Shown here: positions 2,871-61,161 of the stretch, in pieces
How the letters are laid out: the number at the start of each line of letters is the position of its first letter
Position numbering within the stretch: the first letter of the stretch is position 1
From: a virus
Lineage: Duplodnaviria; Caudoviricetes
Strand: one strand, 5' to 3'
Virus record (IMG/VR): IMGVR_UViG_3300050343_000157
Coordinates: 1 to 61,161 of that record
Length of the DNA stretch: 61,161 bases
Program-made: the position numbers and the translations under genes
The notes under the pieces: generated by a model
The model's database searches: none
What the model saw: only the letters and a program-made list of their open reading frames with translations
What the model was told of the DNA's origin: nothing

Positions 2871-3018
2871 AAATGAAGAACCATCTGGAACTTGGAGTAT
2901 GGCTTTAGGCACATATCCAGGAGTATTATTTGGGGCTAGAACTTATGAAGGCCCAACACACACACAACACGTATTTTATCTACCGTTTGTAGATATAGCA
3001 ATAGAAATAAAAAATTAA
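2863..3018 (+). CDS. hypothetical protein (51 aa, not in ORF track)
   Basis: MDENEEPSGTWSMALGTYPGVLFGARTY...YLPFVDIAIEIKN*, ends 1 nt before nrdB. Confidence 0.6.
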   Translation: MDENEEPSGTWSMALGTYPGVLFGARTYEGPTHTQHVFYLPFVDIAIEIKN

Positions 3019-3019
3019 T

Positions 3020-3997
3020 ATGAAAGCACCTTTATTTACAGAAAGAATCCCGTACAAACCATTTGAATACCCGGAATATTATACAGAAGGCTGGCTTAAA
3101 CAGGCTCAAGCATTTTGGTTACATACGGAAATTCCTATGTCAGGTGATTTAAAAGACTGGAACGAAAAGTTAAATGATAAAGAGAAAAACCTAGTAGGAA
3201 ATATTTTGCTAGGCTTTGCTCAAACTGAATGCGCTGTGTCAGATTACTGGACACAAAAAGTCGTTGGTTGGTTTCCTAAACACGAAATACAACAAATGTC
3301 TATGATGTTCGGAAGCCAAGAAACAATTCACGCAGTAGCTTATAGTTACTTGAATGAAACATTAGGCTTAGAAGATTATGAAGCGTTCTTACATGAGCCC
3401 GCAACAGCTGCTAGGTTCGATAACTTAGTTGCTTATGAAGGTAATGATCCTGTGGGCATAGGTAAATCGTTAGCTACGTTCTCGGCCTTTGCAGAAGGCG
3501 TTAGTTTGTATTCTGCGTTTGCTGTGCTATACAGTTTTCAAATGCGTAACTTACTTAAAGGTATTGGGCAACAAATGAAATGGTCTGTAAGAGATGAATC
3601 ATTACATAGTAAAATGGGTTGTCAATTATTTAGACACATGTGTTCTCAAATACCAGGATTAAAAGAAGAATGCAAGGAGCATATATACGATGCAGCTTTA
3701 ACAATGCATAATGCTGAAATGACTTATATAAGTAAGTTATTTGAAATGGGTGATATTGAAGGAATAACAGAATATGATCTTAAACACTTTATTAAAAAAC
3801 GAACAGGTGATAAACTTCAAGAATTGGGTTATAAACAAGAAGGCAAGTTTAAATTCGAATATGACCAAAAGTCAATTGATAAAATGGCTTGGTTCGACCA
3901 TCTTACTGGGGGTCACACTCACACTGATTTTTTCGCTATTAGGCCGACTGACTATAGTAAAGCAAATGAAGGCGAAGATTTTGAAGACGTATGGTAA
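3020..3997 (+). CDS. nrdB: ribonucleotide reductase class I beta subunit
   Basis: ETIHAVAYS, AEGVSLYSAF, RDESLH di-iron ligand motifs. Confidence 0.96.
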   Translation: MKAPLFTERIPYKPFEYPEYYTEGWLKQAQAFWLHTEIPMSGDLKDWNEKLNDKEKNLVGNILLGFAQTECAVSDYWTQKVVGWFPKHEIQQMSMMFGSQETIHAVAYSYLNETLGLEDYEAFLHEPATAARFDNLVAYEGNDPVGIGKSLATFSAFAEGVSLYSAFAVLYSFQMRNLLKGIGQQMKWSVRDESLHSKMGCQLFRHMCSQIPGLKEECKEHIYDAALTMHNAEMTYISKLFEMGDIEGITEYDLKHFIKKRTGDKLQELGYKQEGKFKFEYDQKSIDKMAWFDHLTGGHTHTDFFAIRPTDYSKANEGEDFEDVW

Positions 3998-4242
3998 AAT
4001 ACAGACTGCTAAGGTTTTTAATAGAAAGAAAAAGAAAACTAAAACCTAGTGAGAGATTAGCTACCCGTATAGGTTATATGGGAGCTGGTTTTCTAGTAGC
4101 AGCGCAATGGACAATAGAGCCAGCTTTATACATAGTTGGTTTTATTTGCGTTTGTGTGCAGACTGCATCTCGTAAGCAATGGAATTTAGTTGCTTTAAAT
4201 ATTAATGGGCTTATAGCCTGGATTAAACATTTAATTATATAA
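3991..4242 (+). CDS. small membrane protein (about 3 hydrophobic segments)
   Basis: Hydrophobic stretches IGYMGAGFLVAA, ALYIVGFICVCV, LVALNINGLIAW. Confidence 0.7.
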   Translation: MVKYRLLRFLIERKRKLKPSERLATRIGYMGAGFLVAAQWTIEPALYIVGFICVCVQTASRKQWNLVALNINGLIAWIKHLII

Positions 4243-4243
4243 T

Positions 4244-4450
4244 ATGGGAGTACAAAAGAATATTAAACAATTACAAGAACAAGTTAACATTTTAGGTGGG
4301 GCTTTAACAAGAGCGTTAAAAGATTTAAATGTTATAAGAACATTAGCTCAAGGCACACTTACTTCTTTTCAATTACATATTGGACAAGAAAGGTGGGATA
4401 AACTTGTTAAAGAACTTAAAGATTTAGAGAAAAAAGATGTGGAACAATAA
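4244..4450 (+). CDS. hypothetical protein (68 aa)
   Basis: ORF tightly packed between neighbours. Confidence 0.7.
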   Translation: MGVQKNIKQLQEQVNILGGALTRALKDLNVIRTLAQGTLTSFQLHIGQERWDKLVKELKDLEKKDVEQ

Positions 4451-6158
4451 TTGGAAAAAAGGAATTGATTATCCTGCTTGGGGTGAAACCGATGTTTATA
4501 AGAAAACAATTGGTGGAGGATATTTAATTAAAGAAGAAACCCCACGAGACGCATATAATCGTGTATGCGAAACTGTAGCGAAGCGTTTAGGACGCCCAGA
4601 ACTTGCTCCAACATTTTTTGAATACATATGGAATGGTTGGCTGTGTTTAGCCTCTCCTGTGTTATCAAATACTGGTTCAGATCGAGGGTTGCCTATATCA
4701 TGCTTTGGTATAGATGTTGCTGATTCAATATATGATATTGGAAGCAAGAATTTAGAGATGATGTTACTCGCTAAGCACGGCGGTGGAGTTGGCATTGGTA
4801 TAAATCAAATCAGACCCGCTGGCGATACAATTAATGGAAATGGAACAAGTGACGGCGTGGTGCCTTTTTGCAAGATATACGATTCAACAATACTTGCCAC
4901 TAATCAAGGATCTGTCCGAAGAGGAGCAGCATCAGTTAATATCAATATTGAGCATCCCGACTTTGAGGAATGGCTTGAAATTAGAGAACCTAAAGGAGAC
5001 GTTAATCGTCAGTCGCTCAACCTCCACCAGTGCGCTGTGGTCGGCGACAAGTTCATGCGAAGAGTTGAAAGCGGAGATGTTGAAGCAAGAAAAAAATGGG
5101 GAAAGCTTTTACAAAAGCGTAAAGCAACTGGAGAACCTTATATATTATTTAAGGGAAATACAAACAAAAATAATCCAGAGCAATACAGAAAGCATGGTTT
5201 AAAAGTTCACATGACAAATATATGTAGTGAAATTACATTACATACAGATGAATCACATTCATTTGTTTGTTGTTTGTCTAGTTTGAATTTAGCTAAATAT
5301 GAGGAGTGGAAAAACACTAATCTTATTTATGACAGCATCTGGTTTTTAGATGGTGTATTAGAAGAATTTATACAAAAATCCAAAGGTAAAGTTGGCTTTC
5401 ATAATTCTGTTAGATCTGCTGAAAAAGGTAGAGCGTTAGGATTAGGCGTACTTGGTTGGCATACTTATTTGCAAGATCAAGGTTTACCGTTTGAAGGATT
5501 ACTATCACAATATGAAACAAGAAAAATATTTTCACAAATTAAAATTGAAAGTGAGAGAGCTTCAATGGCTCTTGCGGAAGAATTTGGCGAGCCTCTTTGG
5601 TGCCGTGGTTCAGGTTTTAGGAATACTCATTTGCGGGCTATTGCTCCTACTGTATCTAACAGCAAGCTTAGTGGCAACGTTAGTCCTGGAATCGAACCTT
5701 GGGCTGCAAACGTATTTACAGAACAAAGTGCAAAGGGTACTTTCATTCGCAAGAACCCTGCGTTATTAAAAGTATTAAAGAAATATAAAATTAATATTGA
5801 TAAAGTATGGAACAAAATAATGAAAGATGCTGGTTCCGTACAAGGTGTTAAAGAGCTTGATGATATTAAGCTTGGCAAGTGGGAAACACCAGCGAAAGAA
5901 GTATTTAAAACGTTTAAGGAAATTAATCAACTAGAATTAGTTAATCAAGCGGGAATAAGACAACAGTATATAGATCAATCTGTTAGTTTAAATTTAGCAT
6001 TCCCGAGTGTTGCAGAACCTAAGTGGATTAATAAGGTTCATTATGAAGCGTGGAAGAAAGGTATTAAAACCTTATATTATATGCGAACTGAATCAGTTCT
6101 TAGAGGTGATATTGCACAGAATGCAATGGATGAAAATTGCTTAGCGTGTGATGGATAA
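4437..6158 (+). CDS. nrdA: ribonucleotide reductase class I alpha subunit, short form without ATP cone
   Basis: LPISCF, GGGVG, TNICSEI, AIAPT, DQSVSLNL, KTLYY, C-terminal CLACDG. Confidence 0.96.
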   Translation: MWNNNWKKGIDYPAWGETDVYKKTIGGGYLIKEETPRDAYNRVCETVAKRLGRPELAPTFFEYIWNGWLCLASPVLSNTGSDRGLPISCFGIDVADSIYDIGSKNLEMMLLAKHGGGVGIGINQIRPAGDTINGNGTSDGVVPFCKIYDSTILATNQGSVRRGAASVNINIEHPDFEEWLEIREPKGDVNRQSLNLHQCAVVGDKFMRRVESGDVEARKKWGKLLQKRKATGEPYILFKGNTNKNNPEQYRKHGLKVHMTNICSEITLHTDESHSFVCCLSSLNLAKYEEWKNTNLIYDSIWFLDGVLEEFIQKSKGKVGFHNSVRSAEKGRALGLGVLGWHTYLQDQGLPFEGLLSQYETRKIFSQIKIESERASMALAEEFGEPLWCRGSGFRNTHLRAIAPTVSNSKLSGNVSPGIEPWAANVFTEQSAKGTFIRKNPALLKVLKKYKINIDKVWNKIMKDAGSVQGVKELDDIKLGKWETPAKEVFKTFKEINQLELVNQAGIRQQYIDQSVSLNLAFPSVAEPKWINKVHYEAWKKGIKTLYYMRTESVLRGDIAQNAMDENCLACDG

Positions 6159-6163
6159 AATTT

Positions 6164-6192
6164 AAGGGGCTTTTTTAAGGCCCCTTTTTTTT
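6164..6192. terminator. intrinsic terminator between convergent gene blocks
   Basis: AAGGGGC-9nt-GCCCCTT followed by a T run, between nrdA (+) and the late operon (-). Confidence 0.85.
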
Positions 6193-6844
6193 ATTTATTT
6201 TTAACTTGAGTTCTCATAGATATTTTAGTTGAATTAACTAAAGATCTACTTGGCCTTATATCTGGCCTTGGATTTTCTCTTGGAGTAATTTTAGAATTAA
6301 AATTATTATTAGGATTTTCCCTTGGAACAAATTTGTTTTTATTATTCCATGCTCTTTCTTGCCTATTGTTATTTAGCTTTACTTCGTTTCTTAATCTATT
6401 AGCTACTATATTAATTTTATCTTCTCTTACTTTTCTAATACTATTTCTCCTTCCTTTCATTACAGCTACATTACGAGGCTGTTCATACATATAATATCTT
6501 GGTATTTGATAATTAAAATAAGGGTAACCAAAAGCCCAATCGTACCAGAAATTATGTCTATTCCAATACATATCAAAAGAATTAAACGGATTCCAAAATC
6601 TAGCAAACGATGCAGAAGAATAAAATGAGAACGGCTGATTAGATGCGAACTTAGCGTAGTTCCATCTAAATGTAAAGCTATTTCTCATCTTCCAATTTAA
6701 TCTTGTATAAGATAATGTATCTATCTTAACAGTAGAAGGAACATCTAACCAGGGACCTGATAGTGGTGGTGGTGTTTTTTGTATTCCGCAACTAACAACA
6801 ACCAGAGTGGCCGTTACAAAAAGGACAGTTTTCCATAATTTCAT
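6191..6844 (-). CDS. predicted lipoprotein
   Basis: Signal peptide with lipobox-like VVVSC; aromatic-rich middle; R/N/P-rich tail. Confidence 0.75.
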   Translation of the reverse strand: MKLWKTVLFVTATLVVVSCGIQKTPPPLSGPWLDVPSTVKIDTLSYTRLNWKMRNSFTFRWNYAKFASNQPFSFYSSASFARFWNPFNSFDMYWNRHNFWYDWAFGYPYFNYQIPRYYMYEQPRNVAVMKGRRNSIRKVREDKINIVANRLRNEVKLNNNRQERAWNNKNKFVPRENPNNNFNSKITPRENPRPDIRPSRSLVNSTKISMRTQVKNK

Positions 6845-7308
6845 TATATTATTTTATATTTTGTTTTATTGTTCTCGTCTTTGTAAGCTTCTAAACAACG
6901 CTTTCTATTAGAATCAGCATCTATATAACTTACATGAACCCAAGAAGGATTGTCTTCGGTTCCAAATTCCCAGATCATTTGATCGAAATCTAAATTTTCT
7001 TTTATGTAATGGTACATATCTTTATTAGACATGTAACCGTAAGTATCATCTAAATCCATCGCTCTTCCCTGGCAATGTTGTGATTTACTGCTCCCGCCGA
7101 TTGCCTTATTCAATTCTTCTGAACGAAAGAATGAATTAATTTTTATTGGGCCATTCACAGCTTTTCTTAATGGTTCAAATACTTTTTCAGCAATAAGTTC
7201 CATATTCTGTAATTCGTATTCTCCAGGCTCATTCTCTATACCTTTCCTTAATGCAGTCGCGCTGAATATGGCTTCTTTCTTTGTTATGTGCTCGCTTATC
7301 TTACTCAT
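6844..7308 (-). CDS. peptidase M15 family endolysin
   Basis: INSFFRS...SQHCQGRAMD...WVHVS. Confidence 0.9.
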   Translation of the reverse strand: MSKISEHITKKEAIFSATALRKGIENEPGEYELQNMELIAEKVFEPLRKAVNGPIKINSFFRSEELNKAIGGSSKSQHCQGRAMDLDDTYGYMSNKDMYHYIKENLDFDQMIWEFGTEDNPSWVHVSYIDADSNRKRCLEAYKDENNKTKYKII

Positions 7309-7623
7309 CTATTGAGCTTTTAATCTTTCGATATGGTTTTCTATATCTTCTTTTGTTATCTTTAATTTCAATGCTATACCACCACTCCATTGTCCTTTAG
7401 GTTTACCGTTGTGTAAAACTAAAATAGTTGGAACAGATTTTATTTGTTGTCTAAATGAAGGCGTTTGTTCTTCTAGTATTAAATATTTTACCTTAGCATA
7501 CTTAAGGCCGTCAAGGTCGAGGTTATGTCTTGAATTCCAAGAAGAATTAATGTGCAGTACTTCGTATTGTGAATATCCTGCGATTGTAAAGAGTAAACTT
7601 AATATTATTAGAATCTTTTTCAT
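7309..7623 (-). CDS. secreted thioredoxin-fold-like protein lacking CxxC
   Basis: Signal peptide; INSSWN...IKSVPTILVLHNGK. Confidence 0.6.
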   Translation of the reverse strand: MKKILIILSLLFTIAGYSQYEVLHINSSWNSRHNLDLDGLKYAKVKYLILEEQTPSFRQQIKSVPTILVLHNGKPKGQWSGGIALKLKITKEDIENHIERLKAQ

Positions 7624-7624
7624 T

Positions 7625-7906
7625 TTATTTGTTTATAATTGTGAACAGTTTGTCGTCGATTTTATCTAGTTTTTCACTATTATCTTGAACTTTCTCATCA
7701 ATATCCATAATAGTAGTTCTAACCAGTTCATCTTTTAAATCATATTCTGTTCTACTCACCTCTGGTTTAGGTAATTCTTTTGCAAGATCTATATCTTTTT
7801 GCAAAGTAAAATACATGGCTGCTAAACTCACTGCGCCTGCGACCAACATTCCAATCGTTTTTAAATCTAATTGTACTTCTGTGTTTTCTGAAATTTTTTG
7901 AGCCAT
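7625..7906 (-). CDS. membrane-anchored coiled-coil protein (holin/spanin candidate)
   Basis: One hydrophobic helix plus C-terminal coiled coil; first gene of lysis cassette. Confidence 0.6.
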   Translation of the reverse strand: MAQKISENTEVQLDLKTIGMLVAGAVSLAAMYFTLQKDIDLAKELPKPEVSRTEYDLKDELVRTTIMDIDEKVQDNSEKLDKIDDKLFTIINK

Positions 7907-7933
7907 AATTTTTTTAAGTTTCTATAATATATG

Positions 7934-7943
7934 TAATCACCTA
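7934..7943 (-). promoter_or_regulatory. putative late promoter core (YANGTRATWA) for lysis cassette
   Basis: TAGGTGATTA on - strand; similar motif at four other late-block gene boundaries. Confidence 0.55.
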
Positions 7944-8219
7944 TTTTTTATTCCTTTTAACGTTTTTTACTCTTCGTGGCTTACCTTTTGGTTGGCCCAA
8001 GCTTTTCTTTTCTCTAATCTTTTTTGCTTTTTCAGATGAAGACATTTCACCAGATGTTTTTGGTGTTTTACTCGACACTCTTTTACTGGGCCTACAATAA
8101 GGCACACCTCTCCCATCACCCTTTGTTCTACCACAAGGTTTACCTGTTCTAACATCTACCCACTTCTCTTTAAACCAGCGCTTTAACGCAGCGCCTTTTT
8201 TAGTTTTTCTAACAGCCAT
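7941..8219 (-). CDS. small basic protein (DUF5872-like)
   Basis: LKRWFKEKWVDV...CGR...PYCRP...TPKT. Confidence 0.7.
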   Translation of the reverse strand: MAVRKTKKGAALKRWFKEKWVDVRTGKPCGRTKGDGRGVPYCRPSKRVSSKTPKTSGEMSSSEKAKKIREKKSLGQPKGKPRRVKNVKRNKK

Positions 8220-8335
8220 TACTTTTTCTTTTTGCCTTTGTTTTTTCTACATTTAGCTATAGCTCCACTCGCATATGCGGATGGGAATACTTTGTATTGT
8301 TTTTTTACTTTGTGGTAACACGCATCTTTTGGCAT
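8219..8335 (-). CDS. tiny basic protein (38 aa, not in ORF track)
   Basis: MPKDACYHKVKKQYKVFPSAYASGAIAKCRKNKGKKKK*. Confidence 0.7.
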   Translation of the reverse strand: MPKDACYHKVKKQYKVFPSAYASGAIAKCRKNKGKKKK

Positions 8336-8337
8336 AA

Positions 8338-11300
8338 TTAAAATTTTAATGTTTTCATTGAACTTTTCTTCTTTTTCTTTTTCTTTTTAGGTTTTTTCCA
8401 TTCTAATTCCCATTTACTCCAGCCTAAAATATTAGCAACACGCATCCAATCGGCATTTTCACTGTCTAAAGCGTCTTTTATATTTGTAATTTTTTTAATA
8501 CCTCTATCCACAGGTAAATTGGTGGTAGCACTTATTAATTGTCCAATAGCTAAATAAGCGGGATTATCTAAAGCAAATCCTTTTTCTTTTATTTCTTTTT
8601 TATTCCAATCAAACGTTCTTCCGGCAGATCTTACTTTTCTTATTTTAGAGGATACAGGAGGAGATAAATTTATTAATTCCAATGCGGAATCCTGCATGGG
8701 TTTATCATCAATAATTTTTAATATTGCATTTTTTAAAGTTGAAATTGCTGCGCCATGAAATCCAATTCCTCTTAATAACGAGTCAGCCATGCCATTAGCA
8801 ATATTTCCATATTTTTTTTCTTCTTTTTCATCATCGGCCTCATCTCCAAATGATAAAGCGAATAAAGCCTGTTGCAATGCATTAAATATAACGTTTTGTA
8901 CCATGCCATAATATAATATTTTTGATATATTACTTTTAGCATCCCCACGGCCGTTTTTAAGATCACTAGCCGCCCTTTGTATAATTCTAGCGTATTGCGC
9001 TGGTGTGTTTGCAAAAGCCAATATAATACGTCCTAATGGACCAGCTTGCTGTTGACTAATTCTATCAGGTCTACTTGATTGCTGGGATTCTTCTGCTATT
9101 TCTCTAAAATCTAAAAAAGCTTTTTCGCTAGCTTCTTTTTCAGACATACCATCTTTTACGTAGGAATTAATTCTGTTCCTATAAAAAGTAGCTCCGCCTG
9201 ACGCGATCGCAAAACTATCGGCTATTTGAGTTGGTAAAAATCCTAATTTTAAAACTTTGTTTATAAAAGCTTTTGCTTTATTGTTAGATTCAGCGGCAAT
9301 TTCAGCAATATCAGATTCATTAACATTTATTTTCAAGCCATTTCTTCTTTCAACTAAATAATTAGAATTCATTATATACATTACATCTTTCCAGTATTGG
9401 GGCTGGTTAGCAAACGCCGCAGATGCTTTAAACATATTATTGTCATTCCAATTTATAAAATTAACAGAAGATATAGTCTGTAACACTGCGGATCTCATAT
9501 TAAAAAACATTATAGCCCCCACAGAACCATTAAGCCAATCTACAAATCTAGATGTCAATCGGTCATTGCCAAATTTTCTATTGCTACCGGATTTCATACG
9601 CTCGAGCATGTTTTCTAAAGCCATTCTATAGCCCTTACCATACGCTGCCTCAAGTTTATTTAAATTAGCTTCATTAAATATTTCATCAGCATTTGTTTGC
9701 CATTTAGATAACGCTTCTTTTCTCGTTGTCGTATTTAATCCTTGTAATAAATCTGTTGATATTGTTCCCACAAGCCAATTTTTATCAGGTGCGGGGTACC
9801 CCTCTACATTAATAGCCGATAATTCATCAGCAAACTTTTTTAATTTCTCGTTTGATTCTATGTATTTATTTAATGTTTTATTATCTGCTATTGATAATCC
9901 TGGAACTTTTAAGCCTTGTTTTGTCCATACGTATGTTCTTAAAGCATCACTTACAGAATATGGCTCTCCAGGTATTTTTTTCTTTAATTCTTTTGGCGCT
10001 ATTTCAGCAATTTTTTTAATTTGATTATATTTTTCAGCTAAAACAACCCTAGCTTGTGATATAGCCACATTACCTTGCGCGAAAGGATCAAGCAAATTTT
10101 CTTTTATCCAAGCAAGATGTTTATTTCCCTCCTTGCCTTTGCCCACAAAGTATCTCGTTAATCCTTCAAAATCTTGAGCCGATGGAGGAATGCCAAGCAT
10201 ATCGTATTTACCTTTGTCTTCACCAACTATTGCGGCTTTTGATTGTCCGTATCTTTTTCTTGATTCAATTTTAGTAGAATTTTCTAAAATATCATTAAAC
10301 TCAATATCTAAGCTTTTCTTTTTATCGCTTTTGCTTAGTTTAGATTTTAAAGTTTTATAATTAGCACCTTTTCCTTTTTGTTTTCCAACAAGTCCAAGCT
10401 CTATCGTTCTTGTTAATGTTCTAATTCCGTCTTTAGACGACGTAGATTTCCACACGACTGTAGCCTTGCTATCGAAACCTAATTCCGCCATGTCTGGCGA
10501 ACCAAACATAGCAGCATCTCCATTGAGACTAATGATTTCACCAGAGTCTATAAAAACCATATACTCAACATCTACGCCTTTTTCTTTTCCTTTTTTAACA
10601 TAGAATTCCCTAACTAATTGGCCATTGTCTTTTATTATTTCTGATTTTGATCTAACAACTTCGAATAAAGTACTTATTTTAGCATTAATAACTTGTTGGC
10701 CATTTATTTCATTAGGAAATTTTATACTAGTTTCTTCAATTTGAATTTCATTTTCTTTGAAACCCATTCTTTTCAAATCTTCAATAATATTATTTTTAAT
10801 TTCTAAACTATAAGCGTTTAATTTGTTGACAGCTCCTTGCGGTAAAATACTGGTGTCAAGAATAACGAAGCTACCAGTTCTATCTGACGTTTTCATTTTA
10901 ACTTCAATGCCAAATTTTACCCCTTTATATTCTAACTCAACATCGACACCTGTGTCTCCAGTTTTTAACTGTTGTAAATCTTGTTTATTTAAAACTTTTA
11001 AACCTGGTAATATTTTTTCTAACTCTTGAGACAGAAATAATTCAGCGGCTTGGCCAGTTTTGTTTTTCATAAAAGCCATTGGATCAAAACTAGGATATTT
11101 CTTTTTTAATATATCAGCTTTAGTTATGAAGTTTTGTATAGCATCATTAACATCTATAGCGTTTTTTGAAAAATTAGATACTATTTTAAAAAATCCATCT
11201 GAATTTAACAATTCATTTAATTGTTTTTTCTTTTCTGATTTTGAAAATTTCTGGCCAATAACCCTTTCAATTTTTCGAACCACTACAGCTTGTTCATTTA

Positions 11301-14300
11301 TATTTAAACCAGCAATTTCAATAGCTGTAGGCGTCATATCAAATCCTAATTGCACAGCTAAACCTTTTGCTAAAGCATCTTTTCTTCCTCTAACTTTAAA
11401 AAATTCTTTAAATTGATCTTTAGTAGGTCGTAATCTATCATATAAATCAACACCTTGGGCTTCATTTTCAACAAACGCTCTTCCATCATCTCTGGCTTTT
11501 CTTATATCCGCTTGTTTTGTTAATCTTCTATTATACTTTGTAAATATTTTTTTGTCAGCCGGAACTAATTTTTCGGCTTGTATAAAAAATTGAATAGGCA
11601 TATGGTTAAGTATACCGGAGTATTCTCTATCTAAAAATGCATCAAAATCTTTCATTTCAGCTTTTACTTTTTTATAAAGATTTGAGCCGTAAGTTTTTAT
11701 TAAAAAATTTCTATACTTTTTATCGTCAATACTAACTTCACCTGATACTGCTGCTTCATAAACAACATCAAATATTTCTTGTGTTAATTCTGGTGTTACT
11801 ATAGAGGTATTTTCTTTTAACTGAGATTTTGGTATTGATTCTTCTGTCTGCAACAAACCTTGATCAACCATATCTTCTATAGATTGACTATCTGTATCTA
11901 CAACCTGTATAGTTGTAGTTTCTCCACCAACCTGCTTTTCTATCGATGTAGTTTTAATATCTTTTGCATATTGCTCTTTAACATCTAATAATGATTTATA
12001 TGCAATACCGCCAGTACCTTTGCCTTTGCTAGCACCATATATATAACTAAATAGACTTCTTTTATTTCCGTCTATTGTTGGTTTGTAATTTTTTAAAACT
12101 CTGTCAGTAATTCTTTCTCTTATTTTTCTAAGAGCTTCTGATTGTATTTCTTTAGGTAATCCTCCTAGGTTTTTATCAGCAGTTATTAAGTTACTTAAAT
12201 ACCCATCCAGTATTTGGTTTCCTTCAATTTCTTTGTAAACGCCCGATACAGCTTTATTATTTTTCTTAAAGTCATCTTGAGTTTTAATTTCTTCAGTAAT
12301 ATAACTATCCAAAGTAGCGGACATAGATGCCGTATTGACTGATTTCTTTTTAATTGTTTGTTTTTTATCGACTATTTCAACTCCATCTTGTGATGTAGTA
12401 ATTTCGTATTTTAATAATTTGTTTTTCTTATTAACGTTAGTATTAAAATTTCTAATAAAATCTACTATATCCTTACCTGTGTTTAATTCAATTTTTGATT
12501 TGCCAATTATATTATCAAAAGTATTTTTAAAAGATCTTTTAATGCCATCAATTTTACCTTCGTCTAAATTAATTTTTTGTTTAGATATTATATCTGAAAA
12601 TATAGTGAAATATTCCTCATTAGCACCATCTTTTAGTTTACCTGTTTTTTTATCAGTATAATTTTTTGTGATCCTACTTTCTATTTCTTTTAAAATTTGC
12701 GTTCCCTCTTCACTTTTATTTAAATAATCTTTGAAAGAGTCCACTAGAGGTTGCATTGATGCGTCATTAACTTTAAAAGACCTAGACATAACATAATGTA
12801 ATAACTCATGCCCTAATACATTTGTTGATTCTGCTTCGGCGACCGCTTTTTCATTAATGAATATTTTAGCCTTATCTCCTGATTCATCCAAAAACATACC
12901 CTCAGCCTTACCCATACCCTCTGGCAAGTTGCTTTCATTTACATAAGTTATATCTAAATCCTCTTTATTAACGCCTTTAAGTTTGTTAAATTTTTCAAAA
13001 ACAATTTCGCTATCTATAAATGCTTCAGAAAGTGTTCTATCAATTGCTGCGTCAATTTGACTAAATTCCATTATATCAGCATTTTGTTGATATTTTTTAT
13101 CAATTTCTTTTTTGACTTCTTCTTGATGTATTTTTGAGTATTTATCTGATCTTAAATCGCCTTGTGAGTTCCTTATAAAATCTAAATTTTCACCGTATTG
13201 TATTAACTCCGTTTTAGTTAAACCGTCAAATTTATTTTTTAATTTATTTTTATGTTCAATAGATTGAGCTTCAAGGTTTTTAATTTTGTTTTCAAAAATT
13301 TCTTTTTCTCTTTTTGTTGTAGCTATCTCTAAATCATCTTTAGCATTTACTATTTGTTGATTGATTTTTAAATCATCATTTTTCCAAGACGCTGGGGCAA
13401 CGTATTCATATAAAATGTCTTTATTCTGTGAAGTTTTAAATTGTGTTATTACAGATCCAGTTGAGTTTACAGGGCCTCCTAAAAAACCGCCAATAACAAA
13501 ACTATTAACCATGTTTTTAATATAGTTTGGATTTTCATCAAATAAAAGCTCATCACTTTTATCTTGAATAAAACTGTTTACAGCTTCAGTTGCACCTTCT
13601 TGCAAAAAACCTTTAGCTCCATCTGCAATTACTTTTGCTGTTGCGCCAAAAAATCCTCTTGTAAAATCTTCAATAGCTTTCTTTTTAGGCCCTTTTCCTA
13701 AATTTTTAACTTGCCCTAATCCCTTAAAAAATTTACCGCCAAAGTATTCTGTTGCCCACTCTGATCCACCTTTTATTAACGCAGAGCCATATAATTCAGA
13801 AGCGGTTGCTCCTGGCCTATTTTTTAAATTTTCTCTTAAATCATTTCCAGATGTAGATGCACCAAGCAATGCTCCGCCATATAATGGACTAGCGATTGCT
13901 AAAGCTAAAGATGGAGCAGAAAAAGCGGCTTGACTAGCTGCTAAATCCGCAGCATCACCAATTCTACCCTCTTTAATTAAATCCTGTACATCTAATACAT
14001 TTCCTTGATCGTTGTATTTTTTTACGCTTAAATCTTTTGCTTTATTTAAGCTTTCGTACATAGGCTGCAAATCTATTTTATCACCATGCTTTCTAGCCCA
14101 ATTACCTAACCCCTCATCAATGTTGTCAGCCAAAGAAATTGTAGTCATAAGATCTAGTGCACCACTAGGGCCGGTTGCGGCTACTACAGGAGATAAAAAT
14201 CCGTCAAAAAAATCTACTAATCCACCAGCAATTTCCCCAGCACCGATGGTTGCATTGTACATTTTTTCTTGAGCCCAATCTGGTAGAACTCCAAAAGCGG

Positions 14301-53188: not shown

Positions 53189-53304
53189 ATAGGGAAGTAA
53201 TGGGTTACATTACCGTATTTCCTTTGTACACCCTATAATAAAACCCATATCATTTACCCCACCCCCCCTCCATTTACAACATTTCTCTATAAGTTTTTGC
53301 CTTT

Positions 53305-53339
53305 TACAATGTAAACACGATGTTAACTGGATAATATAA
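53305..53339 (+). promoter_or_regulatory. early promoter motif copy 1
   Basis: TACAATGTAAACACGA-N8-GGATAATATAA. Confidence 0.8.
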
Positions 53340-53378
53340 CTGTAAGTAAGTAACTAATAATAATTAAATAAATATACT

Positions 53379-53696
53379 ATGACTAAATTAAATGAGAACA
53401 TCGCAACATTATCACAAGAACAACTAACTGAGGTTTTCCCTCCGATCCACCGCAACAACTTTGTAGTAAGAAAGAGTTGGTTAGGTAGAAATCAAATCAT
53501 TACTTTCATTAATAACAAACATGAACAAATCACCTACAATCACGACGAGGTATTAAAAGTAATGTTACCTAAACTAAACATTCTACCTTGCTGGATTAAA
53601 CGAGGTTACTGGTCTCAATCAACTGACATGCCAAGTAATGTTCGAAATGTAGTAATCGAGAGAGTTAAACTAATCGAAAACAGTGACAATAGCTAA
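53379..53696 (+). CDS. first early protein (105 aa), unknown function
   Basis: ORF after promoter motif 1. Confidence 0.8.
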   Translation: MTKLNENIATLSQEQLTEVFPPIHRNNFVVRKSWLGRNQIITFINNKHEQITYNHDEVLKVMLPKLNILPCWIKRGYWSQSTDMPSNVRNVVIERVKLIENSDNS

Positions 53697-53728
53697 CTAC
53701 TATTAAATCATTATGTACCTAATGTCAC
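53683..53728. promoter_or_regulatory. spaced inverted repeat, copy 2
   Basis: GTGACAATAG-N26-CTAATGTCAC. Confidence 0.65.
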
Positions 53729-53844
53729 ACTTTTACAGGTACACAGGTGAAGGGTTACATCTGTAAACAAATTAACAACTGTAAACAAACTACCTACTTT
53801 AAGTTCCACTTGTTTCTATAAGTATAAAAATGTGAATGAGTAAA

Positions 53845-53885
53845 TGACACAACGGTTTAAGTGAGTTCGATTCTCACCGTGTCAA
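53845..53885 (+). ncRNA. mini tRNA-like element with acceptor stem and T-arm only
   Basis: TGACAC...GTGTCA-A stem with GTGAG-TTCGATT-CTCAC T-arm; 10-nt linker replaces D and anticodon arms. Confidence 0.55.
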
Positions 53886-53928
53886 CTAAGATAACAAAGT
53901 GTTGTCAATAACTTTTAAATATAATAAT

Positions 53929-54048
53929 ATGTATAATCACTCAGCTTTAATTAGAATCTCTAATAAACTTTACCCTAACAAAAATGTCTTCAACTTAACT
54001 AAAGAAGAACAAAGAAAGGTATTAGCAATCTATAATGAATTTCATTAA
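53929..54048 (+). CDS. small early protein (39 aa)
   Basis: MYNHSALIRISNKLYPNKNVFNLTKEEQRKVLAIYNEFH*. Confidence 0.55.
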   Translation: MYNHSALIRISNKLYPNKNVFNLTKEEQRKVLAIYNEFH

Positions 54049-54061
54049 TTGCTATACAACT

Positions 54062-54096
54062 TACAAAGTAAATACGAAGTTAAATGGATAATATAA
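54062..54096 (+). promoter_or_regulatory. early promoter motif copy 2
   Basis: TACAAAGTAAATACGA-N8-GGATAATATAA. Confidence 0.8.
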
Positions 54097-54117
54097 GTGT
54101 AACAAATAATAAATAAT

Positions 54118-54249
54118 ATGATATATAAAGATAATTACGGAAACGATCTTACTTGGGCAATAGGTATGCAAATGGAAGATAAACTAACTAGAGAAGATGT
54201 ACTAGGTATAATCGAGACTCACAAACTAAATACGACAACTAACGGATAA
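54118..54249 (+). CDS. small early protein (43 aa)
   Basis: MIYKDNYGNDLTW...HKLNTTTNG*. Confidence 0.55.
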   Translation: MIYKDNYGNDLTWAIGMQMEDKLTREDVLGIIETHKLNTTTNG

Positions 54250-54254
54250 TATAA
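54220..54254 (+). promoter_or_regulatory. early promoter motif copy 3
   Basis: CACAAACTAAATACGA-N8-GGATAATATAA. Confidence 0.8.
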
Positions 54255-54260
54255 TTGAAT

Positions 54261-54395
54261 ATGATACTAGATAAAACCTTACGCGAACTACTTAACGAAC
54301 TGCACTTCCATGCTAAAATGTTAAGAGACGAAACAATTGATCACCATGACTTCAGTAATGCAGTCGAAGAAATACTTGAACACTATGACAAATAA
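54261..54395 (+). CDS. small early protein (44 aa)
   Basis: MILDKTLRELLNELHFHAKML...EHYDK*. Confidence 0.55.
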   Translation: MILDKTLRELLNELHFHAKMLRDETIDHHDFSNAVEEILEHYDK

Positions 54396-54642
54396 AACCT
54401 ACTATGTATGTAAGACGATGAAAGAACTCCTCGCATTCACCAAAGCAAAAAGAAAACAACGAGCTCATTCTCACTATGAGATGGCCAAAGTACACGGACC
54501 TTGCAGTGGTATGGGTAACAAAAGATACCGAGTTGAACAAAAAAGCAACTACAGTAAACGTAAGAAACCTAGTTATACTACAATATGGAACTATAACAAC
54601 TCAGGTGTGACTTACAAACTAGACACGAACAAAAACGGATAA
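54385..54642 (+). CDS. small basic early protein
   Basis: ATG 54385 preferred to TTG 54337. Confidence 0.6.
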   Translation: MTNKTYYVCKTMKELLAFTKAKRKQRAHSHYEMAKVHGPCSGMGNKRYRVEQKSNYSKRKKPSYTTIWNYNNSGVTYKLDTNKNG

Positions 54643-54647
54643 TATAA
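54613..54647 (+). promoter_or_regulatory. early promoter motif copy 4
   Basis: TACAAACTAGACACGA-N8-GGATAATATAA. Confidence 0.8.
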
Positions 54648-54653
54648 TTGAAT

Positions 54654-54872
54654 ATGAATAAATTTAAAGACTACAAACCTGAATTGATACAAGACAAACT
54701 ACAGCAATGTCTTGACTATGAAGCTAAATACGGTACAATACCACAAGTAACTGCAACGAAAAAATGGTGTCAAAGCTATGAATACAGAAAAAACGAGTGG
54801 CAATTCAGACAAAATGTAGCAAAATCAATTAATTATAATACTAACTACTTAAAACCTTATTACAATGAATAA
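54654..54872 (+). CDS. small early protein
   Basis: ATG 6 nt after motif 4. Confidence 0.65.
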   Translation: MNKFKDYKPELIQDKLQQCLDYEAKYGTIPQVTATKKWCQSYEYRKNEWQFRQNVAKSINYNTNYLKPYYNE

Positions 54873-54978
54873 TACAGAAGAATTAGAACGGTTGTTCGAA
54901 GAAAAGTTCGGTGAAGGATCACTAGAGTTTGCAATAGAGCAAGGTTTCGACAAAGATGAATTACTAAATAATATATAA
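54865..54978 (+). CDS. small acidic early protein (37 aa)
   Basis: MNNTEELERLFEEKFGEGSLEFAIEQGFDKDELLNNI*. Confidence 0.55.
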   Translation: MNNTEELERLFEEKFGEGSLEFAIEQGFDKDELLNNI

Positions 54979-54979
54979 C

Positions 54980-55171
54980 ATGAGTAAAATGAAAGAATTA
55001 GACGATATTGCACAAGGTATTGCAGACGTCACTAAAGAATTAATGTATGATAGTGTTGATTGGCAACTATCAGAGTATGAAGCGGAGGGCGATAACTACA
55101 ATGCTATACATTCGCACGTCATGAACCTAGCAATAAGAAAACTATATGAACAAACGAAAGAGAAAGTTTAG
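54980..55171 (+). CDS. small early protein (63 aa)
   Basis: ORF in packed operon. Confidence 0.65.
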   Translation: MSKMKELDDIAQGIADVTKELMYDSVDWQLSEYEAEGDNYNAIHSHVMNLAIRKLYEQTKEKV

Positions 55172-55274
55172 CCACCACAAATTACTGCAAGCACAAATAA
55201 TTGCAGCGGAACAACAGTATTGGGAACGATACAACTCAGGTATTCCACAATGGATACAAACTAAATACGATTAG
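55146..55274 (+). CDS. small early protein (42 aa)
   Basis: MNKRKRKFSHHKLLQAQ...QTKYD*. Confidence 0.5.
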   Translation: MNKRKRKFSHHKLLQAQIIAAEQQYWERYNSGIPQWIQTKYD

Positions 55275-55289
55275 TATTGGATAATATAA
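55255..55289 (+). promoter_or_regulatory. early promoter motif copy 5
   Basis: TACAAACTAAATACGA-N8-GGATAATATAA. Confidence 0.8.
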
Positions 55290-55314
55290 ATGTAACAAAT
55301 AAAAAAATTAATAT

Positions 55315-55503
55315 ATGTATTGTAAATGCGGCGACAAAGTACACGAAGTACGAATCAAATTAGGATATAGAACTTGTATGCCTTGTTCAACAACCCAAAC
55401 CTATTCTTATGTACCTATAATAGCACATAAAACAGGTAACACAATACAGATAGTGAGTCAAGAAGTGAGCGATTCAGTTCACAGGGCTTGGCGAAGAAAG
55501 TAG
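55315..55503 (+). CDS. DksA/TraR-like C4 zinc-finger protein
   Basis: CKCGDKVHEVRIKLGYRTCMPC resembles CxxCGxxIxxxRLxxxxxxxxCxxC. Confidence 0.6.
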   Translation: MYCKCGDKVHEVRIKLGYRTCMPCSTTQTYSYVPIIAHKTGNTIQIVSQEVSDSVHRAWRRK

Positions 55504-55602
55504 CAGGACGAGTAGCTTAATTAGGCGCATGTGGCGACGACTGTCGACGGGCATATGTGATCATACGGAAGTGTATTGCGTACATAAGTGAATTGCCTGC
55601 TA
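55501..55602 (+). ncRNA. candidate structured ncRNA
   Basis: GC-richer intergenic segment closed by TAGCAGG/CCTGCTA, with internal hairpins. Confidence 0.45.
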
Positions 55603-55607
55603 CAACA

Positions 55608-55689
55608 GGGAGTGATATGGTAAGTGAGACTGTTCGCTTGATTGCGGTACACGACATCTCAAACGGCGGTTCGACTCCGCCCACTTCCA
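55608..55689 (+). ncRNA. tmRNA tRNA-like-domain-only RNA with alanine identity
   Basis: GGGAGTG/CACTTCC-A acceptor with G3.U70; unpaired D-loop; TGAGA/TCTCA stem; GGCGG-TTCGACT-CCGCC T-arm. Confidence 0.65.
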
Positions 55690-55694
55690 CTAAA

Positions 55695-55766
<72 letters not shown>

Positions 55767-55769
55767 CTA

Positions 55770-55925
55770 ATGAAATATCCAAATGCAACGAAACATTTTT
55801 ATGTGTCGATTCTGAAGAGTACAGTAAGAATTGGCGGGTATGTGCTAATACCTTTCGATATAATAGCGGCAACTATAGTATTGATAATCAGCGAGTTAAT
55901 CGGCGTGATTGAAGAAATGGTTTAA
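55770..55925 (+). CDS. small membrane protein (51 aa, not in ORF track)
   Basis: MKYPNATKHFYVSILKSTVRIGGYVLIPFDIIAATIVLIISELIGVIEEMV*. Confidence 0.65.
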   Translation: MKYPNATKHFYVSILKSTVRIGGYVLIPFDIIAATIVLIISELIGVIEEMV

Positions 55926-55960
55926 TACAAACTAAATACGAATACAAACGGATAATATAA
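55926..55960 (+). promoter_or_regulatory. early promoter motif copy 6
   Basis: TACAAACTAAATACGA-N8-GGATAATATAA. Confidence 0.8.
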
Positions 55961-55984
55961 ATGTAAACTAAATAAAATTAAATT

Positions 55985-56212
55985 ATGAGCAAATCACTTT
56001 ACCAAAGATTATTTCCTGAATTAAAGAAAAATCTAAATGCAAACGCGAGGGAATATGCCACCGCTAAACAACTAAAATACAGACTAATGAGCCACACGGC
56101 GTGGTATCAATTAACTGTTGACGACGTTAGACAACTGCAAACGTGGGCAGACTTTTACGACAGATCAATTGATTCTGTGCTATACGGCGACAATATAATA
56201 ATTAAAGACTAA
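55985..56212 (+). CDS. hypothetical early protein
   Basis: ORF after motif 6. Confidence 0.7.
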   Translation: MSKSLYQRLFPELKKNLNANAREYATAKQLKYRLMSHTAWYQLTVDDVRQLQTWADFYDRSIDSVLYGDNIIIKD

Positions 56213-56430
56213 TGAATGTTGATCACCTTAAAGAAACGAAAGAGCGAGCGGTCTGTAAAGTTTTTGCAAACTTATGCCACCTTGAAAATGAGATTAAAGA
56301 CTGTCAGGAAAACATAGATAACAAAACATTATCTAAAGTTGGTATCACTGTTGAAATGCACGAAAGTATTTTAAGCGGTTTATACAAACAAAAACAAGTA
56401 TGGTTATACTTATCATCCCTAATTAAATAA
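56212..56430 (+). CDS. hypothetical early protein
   Basis: TAATG coupling. Confidence 0.7.
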   Translation: MNVDHLKETKERAVCKVFANLCHLENEIKDCQENIDNKTLSKVGITVEMHESILSGLYKQKQVWLYLSSLIK

Positions 56431-56431
56431 T

Positions 56432-56905
56432 ATGAGTACTAGAAACGTAACAATGGTCGTAAATCGATCAGAAGCAAAACAATTTGAAGCAGGCTTCGCA
56501 GTTGATCCCGAAAAAGTTAAAGACGATAGCTATGTAAATATGTATATGCACCATGACGGTTATCCTTCGTGGCGTGGTGTCGAGCTAGCTAACTGGGTAA
56601 ACTACATGCAAAAAGATCAAGGTTTCAACAACTTTGGCGATGGATCAAGAATTGCAAGCCACTTAGTACACGACTTCCACTACAACAGTCAGTACTTATA
56701 TCCTAGTGTCACATCAATTGACCACCATTATACATGGATTATATGGGTTGGTAAGCCTGATGTATGGATAAGTTGTTGGGATAACTACTCTAATCAAAAT
56801 ATATTTGTTGGCAGTCCTAACACAATAATAGAAAAATACGCTGAACCCGGAATGGGCTATACGCAATGGAAAGAAGAGAAATTCACAGTATGTAAACAAT
56901 GTTAA
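56432..56905 (+). CDS. phage protein with YxHxDGYP motif
   Basis: MSTR...YMHHDGYPSWRGVEL. Confidence 0.75.
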   Translation: MSTRNVTMVVNRSEAKQFEAGFAVDPEKVKDDSYVNMYMHHDGYPSWRGVELANWVNYMQKDQGFNNFGDGSRIASHLVHDFHYNSQYLYPSVTSIDHHYTWIIWVGKPDVWISCWDNYSNQNIFVGSPNTIIEKYAEPGMGYTQWKEEKFTVCKQC

Positions 56906-56906
56906 T

Positions 56907-57155
56907 ATGAAACAAAATAAATTACCTAAATGGTTTAATGGAACCGTATACGATCAAGGCGATAGTGTAACAAATCCATTCTCTGGCGAAAGCTACGAAC
57001 TTAATAACTTAGAATTAAGTATGTACGACTTTGTTATGGGGTGTGCAATGATAACCCCTGACACTTTAACTGATATAACAGTAAAAAACTGGCAAGACGG
57101 TTTGTCATGGTTTAGAACAAATAACCCTAAAGCCTATATGGTATTACTAGATTAA
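56907..57155 (+). CDS. hypothetical protein
   Basis: VTNPFSGE...WFRTNNPKAYMVLLD. Confidence 0.75.
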   Translation: MKQNKLPKWFNGTVYDQGDSVTNPFSGESYELNNLELSMYDFVMGCAMITPDTLTDITVKNWQDGLSWFRTNNPKAYMVLLD

Positions 57156-57156
57156 T

Positions 57157-57543
57157 ATGGAAAAAATATATAAAGAAGACATGCACGATGTCACACCTGA
57201 AGAAGCAAAGACTTGGATATTAGATTATTACAACTCTAAAATAACAACCGATTATATGGGAACTAACACTTGTGACTATATTTTTGAATCTGTATATACT
57301 GCAGACTCTTATACGGTATATTGGGCTCACGCAAACGACGATTATGGTTTCAACCCTGAAAATGTTTATTACTATGCTACAGGTATGGTCGATGAGATTA
57401 TAGGTTGTGTTAAAGATGGTCTTGATATATTTATTGATGAAGAAATTTATGATGAATTATACATTGACGATTTACTTCATGAACAATATATAATAGTACA
57501 AGACAGAATTGAATCTGAAAAAGAATTAAACAATACAGACTAA
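57157..57543 (+). CDS. acidic hypothetical protein
   Basis: D/E/Y-rich, 128 aa. Confidence 0.7.
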   Translation: MEKIYKEDMHDVTPEEAKTWILDYYNSKITTDYMGTNTCDYIFESVYTADSYTVYWAHANDDYGFNPENVYYYATGMVDEIIGCVKDGLDIFIDEEIYDELYIDDLLHEQYIIVQDRIESEKELNNTD

Positions 57544-57568
57544 ACACGATCAAACACGGATAATAATA
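57534..57568 (+). promoter_or_regulatory. early promoter motif copy 7
   Basis: TACAGACTAAACACGA-N8-GGATAATAATA. Confidence 0.75.
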
Positions 57569-57572
57569 ATAT

Positions 57573-57830
57573 ATGACAGACGACGAATACAAAATGCTAT
57601 ACCGCCGAATACGTACCGATTTATACAATGAGTTTATAAATCCTGAAACGGCAACTTACGGACTTGACGTCGTGCGACAACAGGACTCTAAATATTATAG
57701 TACAAATGATTTATTACTTGAAGAAATAGAAAGTTTAACTGGTGTAATGAAAGAGTACGAGGCTAACGAAGAGTACGAACAAGCTGCCCTAATTAAAAAA
57801 AGAATAGAAAAAATAAAAAAAGAATTATGA
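57573..57830 (+). CDS. protein with C-terminal UVR (UvrB/UvrC) coiled-coil motif
   Basis: MKEYEANEEYEQAALIKKRI. Confidence 0.65.
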   Translation: MTDDEYKMLYRRIRTDLYNEFINPETATYGLDVVRQQDSKYYSTNDLLLEEIESLTGVMKEYEANEEYEQAALIKKRIEKIKKEL

Positions 57831-59824: not shown

Positions 59825-60456
59825 AAGATAGAAACTTAAAGTGGCTGAACGATAGGCAAGTTATATATTACCGTAACCCTATCTCAGACCTACCAACCGA
59901 ATCAACTAATCTATATGATTACTACGCGGAAGGTACGTTCCAATGCTACAATCTATTTCGCAGTAAAGCAAAGATAACCACATATAAATCATTAAAGTGG
60001 CATTTTTTAGTTTTATACTATTTAAATGCAGATGGCATCGAAGGAGATGATGTTTCACTTGATGATGATATGCGATCTATATTTAATTTTATTGCAGACA
60101 AAGAAAACGGTTTTGTTACATTCTTTATGAAACAAAAAATACTTGACAATATGATTGATGAAGTACTTGGCATTGGTGATACACCTCCTCGTAATCGAAT
60201 ACGTAAAGTAATATTCAAACACGGTACAGGTTTAACATTATCACAGAAGCTAAGCATAGTAGGTAAACTAATTGGTAAAGGTAAAAAAGTTTCAGAAGAT
60301 GATATATACCAATGTATGCTTGACCTCAATCACGAAAAGCAAAAGATAACAATAAGTAAACTAGCCAAGTTATTAAGTTGTACCACAAGAACAATACACA
60401 GAAATATGGGCAATCAATTGAAAACAGAAAAAGAACTACTTAATAATGAACTATGA
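59818..60456 (+). CDS. DNA-binding protein with C-terminal HTH (replication-initiator-like)
   Basis: KITISKLAKLLSCTTRTIHRNM. Confidence 0.7.
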   Translation: MSQDRNLKWLNDRQVIYYRNPISDLPTESTNLYDYYAEGTFQCYNLFRSKAKITTYKSLKWHFLVLYYLNADGIEGDDVSLDDDMRSIFNFIADKENGFVTFFMKQKILDNMIDEVLGIGDTPPRNRIRKVIFKHGTGLTLSQKLSIVGKLIGKGKKVSEDDIYQCMLDLNHEKQKITISKLAKLLSCTTRTIHRNMGNQLKTEKELLNNEL

Positions 60457-61161
60457 AAAAATATAACATACCAATATATTTAAAATATAAAGAAGAAGTT
60501 GAAGATGCAATTGAAGAAGTTAATAAACCAATTGACGGTGATTATACTAAATTAACTAATGAAGAACTAATAATAAACTTCTTGCCGCTAGTTGAAAACA
60601 TAGCGAGAAAACAATCAACAACTAATCAAGCATCAGGCATACTGTCTATACTAGATTTAATACAAGATGGTAATTATGCATTAATTGCTGCAGTAAATAA
60701 ACTAGATAGAGAATTACTATTGAAATCTGACGACCAAGAAAAAACACTTAAATCGTTTTTATCTAAACGAATTAAAGGAGCAATCAGACGAGCCGTTGAT
60801 ATGAACAGAGGCGAGATAAGAATACCTGAACATAAATTAAATGAAATACGTAAGAATCCTAAAGATGAAAAGCTTGTTGCAATGTTCTTTAATTCAGTAT
60901 TCTCTTCAATCGATGCTAGCCCTAACGATGATGAAAATTTAGCTTATCAAGTAATAGACAAATCCGAACCATATAACATAGCTTTATTAAATACTTATTT
61001 GCTAGGTTTAATGCGAACGCATTTAGACGAAAGACAATATAATGTATTGAGGCTAAGTTACGGTTTAGACTGTGATAAGCATTCTGCAAACGATATAGCC
61101 ACTCAAGTTGGAATTAGTGTGAGCACTGCTCATGTAAGAATTTCACAAATAAAACGTGATG
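60453..61161 (+). CDS. sigma-70 family RNA polymerase sigma factor, partial (not in ORF track)
   Basis: FLPLVENIARK, DLIQDGNYALIAAVNK, IRRAVD...IRIPEH, LDERQYNVLRLSYGL...SANDIA...RISQIK; runs off window. Confidence 0.88.
   Translation, partial: MKKYNIPIYLKYKEEVEDAIEEVNKPIDGDYTKLTNEELIINFLPLVENIARKQSTTNQASGILSILDLIQDGNYALIAAVNKLDRELLLKSDDQEKTLKSFLSKRIKGAIRRAVDMNRGEIRIPEHKLNEIRKNPKDEKLVAMFFNSVFSSIDASPNDDENLAYQVIDKSEPYNIALLNTYLLGLMRTHLDERQYNVLRLSYGLDCDKHSANDIATQVGISVSTAHVRISQIKRD

Follow-up and report, generated by a model that had tools for sequence, protein, structure and literature searches.

A sigma-factor domain-2-like fold predicted within a giant protein of a podophage probably infecting Flavobacteriia

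Two ways are known in which phages gain control of transcription as they enter the cell: they inject an RNA polymerase of their own (N4 and the crAss-like phages), or they inject enzymes that modify the polymerase of the host (T4 Alt). A minimal sigma factor, consisting of domain 2 (sigma2) only, is known in the late sigma factor of T4, gp55, which works with gp33 and the gp45 clamp. Here we consider P0001, a giant protein of 2069 amino acids (aa) encoded by a virus of the Caudoviricetes (Duplodnaviria; IMG/VR record IMGVR_UViG_3300050343_000157, positions 1 to 61,161, the whole of this 61,161-nucleotide stretch being called the window below), in which a helical domain is predicted to fold like sigma2. 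T4 gp55 is synthesised in the infected cell as a small free protein, whereas we propose for this domain a delivery ready-made inside the giant protein. The sigma-like subunits PhiKZ gp68 and AR9 gp226 differ in another respect, as they belong to phage-encoded multisubunit non-virion polymerases, whereas no polymerase genes are apparent in the present phage, whose domain has the beta-prime subunit of the host as its predicted partner.

The general build of P0001 recalls the polyvalent proteins, for which the main text of Iyer et al. (2017, PMC5512222) describes a zincin-like peptidase that occurs with virion polymerases of the N4-like kind and for which a role in processing the polyprotein is proposed, and presents as a theme domains that "jump-start transcription". 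Like the polyvalent proteins, which include N4 gp50, P0001 is a giant multi-domain protein that ends a structural gene block and has a variable cargo placed between conserved modules; its conserved HExxH...E motif would fit a zincin-like peptidase. The difference from N4 gp50 is that the host polymerase would be borrowed here, in place of a polymerase brought in. Of the marks of polyvalent proteins, no LPD, MuF or RNA polymerase family of Pfam was matched by P0001 (E ≤ 1). A literature search, confined to main texts of papers outside subscription, brought up no paper that describes sigma-type domains in virion or polyvalent proteins: the main text of PMC5512222 uses the word "sigma" 0 times, and the part of PMC7824862 considered here mentions only free phage sigma factors.

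AlphaFold2, supplied with aa 735-1110 and a 41-homologue alignment, produced a model with a mean predicted local distance difference test score (pLDDT) of 82.3, in which a helical domain (model residues ~4-130, aa 738 to ~865) is followed by a disordered stretch reaching to aa 903 and then by a second domain. Comparison with solved folds placed sigma-factor domain 2 nearest to the first domain: 26 of the 30 top rows were sigma entries, 23 with titles that name a sigma factor and 3 that are initiation complexes whose chains were unchecked, and the other four were a designed repeat protein, two SRI domains and a telomerase thumb. Among the matches are the extracytoplasmic function (ECF) factors SigC (2o7g), SigR (1h3l) and sigma-E (2mao), Escherichia coli sigma-70 (1sig) and the gp55 structures 7d7c and 7d7d. 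In the alignments with E. coli sigma-70, residues 375-446 of 1sig correspond to model residues 32-126 and residues 108-447 of 7mkd_L to model residues 6-127, and the helix ending in KNYKP comes to lie at region 2.2 and SLFSYIYG at region 2.3. Three observations on ESM Atlas features for aa 735-1110, which serve as leads only, point in the same direction, as the third cluster is auto-named "RNA polymerase sigma-70 region 2 domain-containing protein" (0.94), the nearest cluster bearing a family has PF04542 in 98% of its members (0.91), and the best family-bearing matches all (10 of 10) belong to the PF04542 family or clan. On these predictions we consider it likely that the first domain is truly sigma2-like in fold.

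A preliminary description of this DNA, made by eye, had likened part of the segment at 11860-12330 on the minus strand (aa 740-896) to sigma region 2.3. The strings on which it relied, from aa 813 (ITDRVLKNYKP...) to aa 895 (...SIEDMVD), are present in the translation; the fold predicted for the first domain is sigma-like, and its alignment with sigma-70 puts the KNYKP...SLFSYIYG part of them roughly where it had been placed, whereas the methods that compare sequences and profiles lend the likeness no support, as detailed below.

The first domain was co-folded with residues 240-345 of beta-prime from a Flavobacteriaceae genome (G001). The predicted complex scored 0.67, as compared with 0.00 for the best of three controls, and the domain docked at the clamp helices, in line, as far as a prediction on a stand-in beta-prime can be, with the idea of the preliminary description that it acts on the core polymerase of the host. 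Of 80 solved complexes, 58 attained this mark, as did 2 of 110 mismatched pairs, counts that hold only roughly here because our own alignment was used. The runs agreed in at least 71% of contacts, with a partner pLDDT of at least 78. On the polymerase side the contacts fall at residues 291-311 of G001 beta-prime, which correspond to 274-294 in E. coli, inside the coiled coil 260-309 (the clamp helices) that we take to be the principal sigma-binding site, and the G001 stretch is identical to that of E. coli at 46 of the 61 positions compared. On the side of the domain they involve aa 761-771 and aa 807-819, the latter being the helix just before a conserved KN[FY]xP turn, where region 2.2 would be.

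The domain forms part of a conserved module of ~370-420 aa (aa ~738-1105). BLASTP mapping found this module in 60 of 120 listed homologues, 48 of them with alignments longer than 250 aa, and an exhaustive HMMER search with aa 650-1150 against 1.84 billion cluster representatives (50% identity clusters) retrieved 61 at E ≤ 0.001, in all of which the module lies inside giant proteins or short fragments. Conservation in 35-40 of the 42 aligned rows is seen for N820 and P823 of the KN[FY]xP turn, for R816, S831 and F833, and for an aromatic residue at position 835. A search for related loci on viral contigs carrying the module gave two loci only, and the alignments used for folding were therefore built from full-length homologues, 41 and 45 of which were picked, for presence of the module and for diversity, out of 176 fetched.

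Our preferred reading, to which we give a probability of roughly 0.45 and which is built from predictions throughout, is that the sigma2-like domain docks on the clamp helices of the host and loads or recruits polymerase at entry. The module would belong to a "polyvalent"-type giant protein, probably present in the virion and ejected with the DNA; its first domain (regions 1.2-2.4) would most likely bind the core RNA polymerase of the host at the beta-prime clamp helices and would bring the earliest host polymerases to the phage DNA as it enters, serving as a sigma2-only initiation or recruitment factor in a logic like that of T4 gp55, and the upstream HExxH domain may cut the polyprotein. As compared with known sigma factors, the domain is unusual in having no detectable sequence or profile similarity to the sigma2 of the sigma-70 family, in carrying ~35 extra residues in its loops relative to sigma2 structures, in lacking the region 4 of that family and in being embedded in a 2069-aa protein of the structural gene block, where sigma factors are otherwise free proteins of 20-70 kDa.

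Several results weigh against this reading, beginning with the searches by sequence. None of the Sigma70 families of Pfam was matched by the whole protein (E ≤ 1) or by the 157-aa segment and four other pieces (E ≤ 10), and no sigma family was found in any of 19 full-length homologues (E ≤ 0.01) or of 10 short or divergent members of the family (E ≤ 1). Six-frame searches of the window with PF04542 and with PF04545 (region 4), both at E ≤ 10, hit only the separate sigma gene of the phage, the latter at 61020-61148. P0001 matched no sigma model in NCBIfam, no sigma family in PHROGs and no sigma among PDB sequences (phmmer and the family profile), and BLASTP found no match between the segment and the phage's own sigma. 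With hhalign, the alignment of the domain scored a probability of 1.1% (P 0.05) against 24 Flavobacteriaceae sigma factors, in a register other than that of the preliminary description, and P 0.068 (local) and P 0.16 (global) against 19 ECF region-2 rows, each in yet another register. The 24 rows come from the 26 Sigma70_r2 matches of genome G001, with two phage-type sigma copies (L043, L044) left out and L038 cut to its first 200 residues, and the ECF set further leaves out L019, L023, L025, L029 and L038. As the registers disagree, the likeness of motifs seen by eye can arise in several ways and has no statistical weight; by sequence statistics, the resemblance to sigma factors does not go beyond chance.

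The comparisons of structure are not all favourable either. Foldseek against the PDB returned nothing at E ≤ 0.001 for both models and no sigma factor in the top 50 for the domain, and in BFVD three phage sigma factors appeared only at ranks 40, 43 and 46 (E ~0.9-1), the only two significant matches there being fragments of giant proteins from uncultured viruses. Machine learning underlies the fold model, the complex model and the Atlas features alike, and none of these predictions is fully independent of the others; the complex score may stem from solved sigma/beta-prime complexes that the predictor has memorised, that is, from likeness and not binding, and the beta-prime used comes from a stand-in genome that is not a known host. 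Neither a sigma region 4 nor any recognisable DNA-binding domain or fold was found in the module, whose second domain (aa 904-1105) resembles no recognisable solved fold. Finally, none of 50,697 phage records was matched by P0001 with tblastn at E ≤ 1e-5, and the giant proteins of the cultivated relatives have no detectable similarity to the module, which must therefore be regarded as accessory cargo and not as a core component of this type of phage.

A first alternative, which we hold to be somewhat unlikely, would make the domain a plain bundle of helices unconnected with RNA polymerase, serving as a structural part, a spacer or a cargo within an internal virion protein or an ejection protein. 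Its likeness to sigma2 would then be that of a common helix arrangement, an explanation to which we accord the same limited credit.

A second alternative takes up what the preliminary description had proposed, a working packaged sigma that would be freed by the HExxH peptidase and direct the host core polymerase to seven early promoters of the type ACGA-N8-GGATAATATAA, starting a cascade with the 254-aa sigma of the phage; we judge this improbable. Several of its elements are real. P0001 has a single HExxH (aa 580-584), upstream of the segment as had been said and conserved together with a downstream Glu, and its H and E columns are nearly invariant in alignments A1 and A3; of the 149 giant homologues fetched that exceed 1000 aa, 115 have an HExxH, and Pfam recognised no peptidase family in this region. 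The repeated motif described earlier also exists and consists of ACAAACTAAATACGA, 8 nt and then GGATAATATAA, the seventh copy reading GGATAATAATA; the pattern ACGA-N7-10-GGATAATA has 7 matches in the window, all on the plus strand, where 0.04 would be expected. As had been stated, it is unlike the Bacteroidota -7 element cited in the preliminary description. The copies (53304-57591) stand upstream of small plus-strand open reading frames (ORFs) and of the sigma gene, which begins at 60453, so that this gene does lie downstream of them.

Other features of the locus speak against a packaged sigma of this kind. The "region 3.2-like finger" that had been seen after the region 2.3-like string does not hold up, being a linker (model residues 131-169) with a pLDDT below 50, predicted to be disordered, acidic (9 D/E as against 2 K/R in aa 866-903), poorly conserved and variable in length and sequence among homologues; such features fit any interdomain linker and are not diagnostic of region 3.2. 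Nothing here points to recognition of DNA or of a promoter, and the module has neither a region 4 nor a recognisable DNA-binding fold, although the missing region 4 does not in itself exclude a packaged sigma, since T4 gp55, which works with sigma2 only, is among the fold matches. Relatives with the same virion layout do without the module. The motif, moreover, whose "early" timing is presumed, may just as well be recognised by the primary sigma of the host together with an activator, or serve the phage sigma as a middle promoter.

Two further explanations fare worse. The clamp helices are contested by sigma and other factors and have room for one partner, and giant internal virion proteins, such as those of N4 and T7, are present in few copies per virion, far below the number of polymerases in the cell. 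A sigma decoy, in which the domain would block the clamp helices against the host primary sigma and shut off host transcription, is thus very improbable: it could draw on the same fold and docking predictions and on the exclusiveness of the site, but the few copies expected per virion make stoichiometric competition implausible and nothing speaks for inhibition specifically. With an exclusive site and few copies, initiation or recruitment is therefore likelier than titration, if the domain binds. A virion RNA polymerase, of the type of N4 gp50 or of gp66 of crAss-like phages, was rejected, as no DxDxD occurs anywhere in the 2069 aa, in agreement with the preliminary description, no RNA polymerase family of Pfam was matched by P0001, and the family profile found no polymerase among PDB sequences. 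A search of the window with PF00940 likewise gave no match, but its controls were silent too.

The coordinates of the features discussed are collected in Table 1.

Table 1. Position of P0001, of its domains and of other annotated features in the window
Feature	Position (nt)	Strand	Basis or remark
Giant ORF P0001, 2069 aa	8338..14547	minus	ORF list and translation; last gene of the TerL-portal-capsid-tail block
Sigma-factor domain-2-like helical domain (predicted), aa 738-865	11953..12336	minus	fold prediction; includes the string likened to region 2.3 in the preliminary description
Acidic disordered interdomain linker, aa 866-903	11839..11952	minus	pLDDT, composition
Second domain of the module, aa 904-1105, alpha/beta, ends in conserved KFS	11233..11838	minus	
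C-terminal module, aa 1400-2050	8398..10350	minus	most conserved part of the giant-protein family
HExxH (GHELLHY), aa 580-584, candidate zincin-type metallopeptidase site	12796..12810	minus	sole HExxH in the protein
Glu645, possible third ligand	12613-12615	minus	invariant in 19-row alignment A2
Separate sigma-70-family gene	60453..61160	plus	TIGR02937, 49.3 bits (cut-off 42.9); cut by the window end
Seven promoter-like motif copies, ~35 nt	53304..57591	plus	repeat families D1, D2, D4
Large terminase (TerL)	30664-32874	minus	PHROG match
Portal	28252-30663	minus	PHROG match
Capsid-type protein	25573-27000	minus	PHROG-based neighbourhood annotation

P0001 belongs to a family with 2483 homologues at E ≤ 0.001 (7997 candidates scored), most of them 2000-2700 aa long, and BLASTP mapping against the 120 listed homologues indicates a modular build with at least five modules. 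An N-terminal part of ~700 aa, which includes the HExxH, precedes the module with the sigma2-like domain, and a variable stretch (aa ~1110-1400) separates the latter from the C-terminal module. This last module was matched in all of the 120 listed homologues, mostly at ~70% identity, has dozens of invariant columns in the 19-row alignment A2 and is probably the functional core of the family. It matched nothing in Pfam, NCBIfam or PDB sequences, and its nearest family-bearing ESM clusters, a lead only, carry LPD39 (28% of members) and LPD38 (63%). The possibility that this module inserts into membranes was dropped, there being no hydrophobic segment in it (Kyte-Doolittle, 19-residue window, threshold 1.2); weak hydrophobic segments (1.3-1.5) occur in P0001 only at aa 106-232. 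Scans of the whole protein (Pfam, PHROGs, NCBIfam and phmmer against PDB sequences) matched no family, the weak rows, all far below cut-offs, being PhnJ, TcdA_TcdB_pore (E 0.0035), HpaR (E 0.02) and parB (E 0.03). One of the 19 homologues of alignment A2 that were scanned carries an AAA_33/Zeta-toxin-type P-loop kinase domain in the variable region (E 4e-9), which fits a polyvalent, cargo-swapping architecture. In P0001 itself, this variable stretch contains a string resembling PD-(D/E)xK by eye (GVDVELEYKG...IEVK, aa ~1195-1225, ~10870-10965 on the minus strand). Near the C-terminus there is a run of eight lysines (aa 2053-2060, 8368-8391 on the minus strand) encoded by an A-rich tract, and the last 20 aa comprise 12 K/R and no acidic residue.

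The virus record has a completeness of ~95% according to CheckV. Besides the genes of Table 1, its minus-strand block holds several "virion structural" proteins and tail fibres (PHROG families), and the plus strand encodes a thymidylate synthase, a ribonucleotide reductase, a ligase and numerous small ORFs. The nearest terminase and portal are those of the uncultured podovirus MW202828 (62% and 53% identity), and the next-nearest, among the 87 records matched by each of the two genes, are 68 Flavobacterium "elemo", 15 Cellulophaga, 2 Tenacibaculum and 1 Maribacter phage records. From these sequence relationships the phage appears to be a ~61-kb marine podophage, kin of the Flavobacterium "elemo" and Cellulophaga phi38:1-like phages, and its host is probably a member of the Flavobacteriia, as the related isolates have hosts of this type. 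When genome contigs were searched with GroEL for a host-like genome, most of those retrieved were phage-like and had been binned into metagenome-assembled genomes (MAGs) of many phyla, and the host was therefore assigned no more finely than "Flavobacteriia-type". The phage has a GroEL-type chaperonin of its own (46909-48474 on the minus strand, PHROG 5725, E 5e-135), and GroEL and GroES genes are likewise present in the elemo relatives. The Flavobacteriaceae MAG G001 includes contigs with a phage-type GroEL (54% identity, L012), and two of its contigs, C7 and C18, carry identical 255-aa frames (L043, L044) that match Sigma70_r2 and fall in the same length class as the 254-aa sigma of the phage. 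These phage-type contigs could be those of related phages binned with a possible host, or else a binning artefact.

Giant genes occupy the same position in the relatives, where they are annotated as "structural protein": gp101 of Cellulophaga phage phi38:1 (1691 aa) and gp18 of Flavobacterium phage elemoF (3694 aa). The label of phi38:1 gp101 derives from similarity to phi18:1, whose virions have reportedly been analysed by proteomics. Going by this synteny with proteins annotated as structural, P0001 is probably carried in the virion. The C-terminal module alone, searched with tblastn against the phage records, found only a "structural protein" of Tenacibaculum phage Gundel_1, and that weakly (E 4e-4). 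MW202828.1 (L002), the closest complete relative, has a gene for a protein of 3859 aa at the same position (741-12320), and BLASTP between this protein and P0001 gave only scraps at E ≥ 0.81, which fall around an HExxH-like site and the C-terminal end. Evolution is far slower in the terminase and portal than in the giant gene.

The separate sigma gene stands at the far end of the plus-strand block. Its Pfam Sigma70_r2 and r4 scores are just below the cut-offs, and its homologues, almost all of 254 aa among those listed, are very abundant in marine metagenomes. An ORF directly upstream of it (59818-60456 on the plus strand) gives a weak match to HTH_11.

In this case a hunch formed by eye from the sequence was confirmed by fold prediction where the profile methods were all blind. 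Should P0001 carry a virion-borne, sigma2-only initiation factor, possibly freed by its own HExxH peptidase, that loads the host core onto promoters of the ACGA-N8-GGATAATATAA type, which we think improbable, it would be the first packaged sigma-type factor and would represent a third route beside injected polymerases and polymerase-modifying enzymes. Such a factor would also solve the problem of bootstrapping for a phage in which the early promoters look non-host and precede the gene for its own sigma. As marine metagenomes contain very many members of the giant-protein family, a real function of this kind would bear on the way in which abundant phages of Flavobacteriia start their infections.

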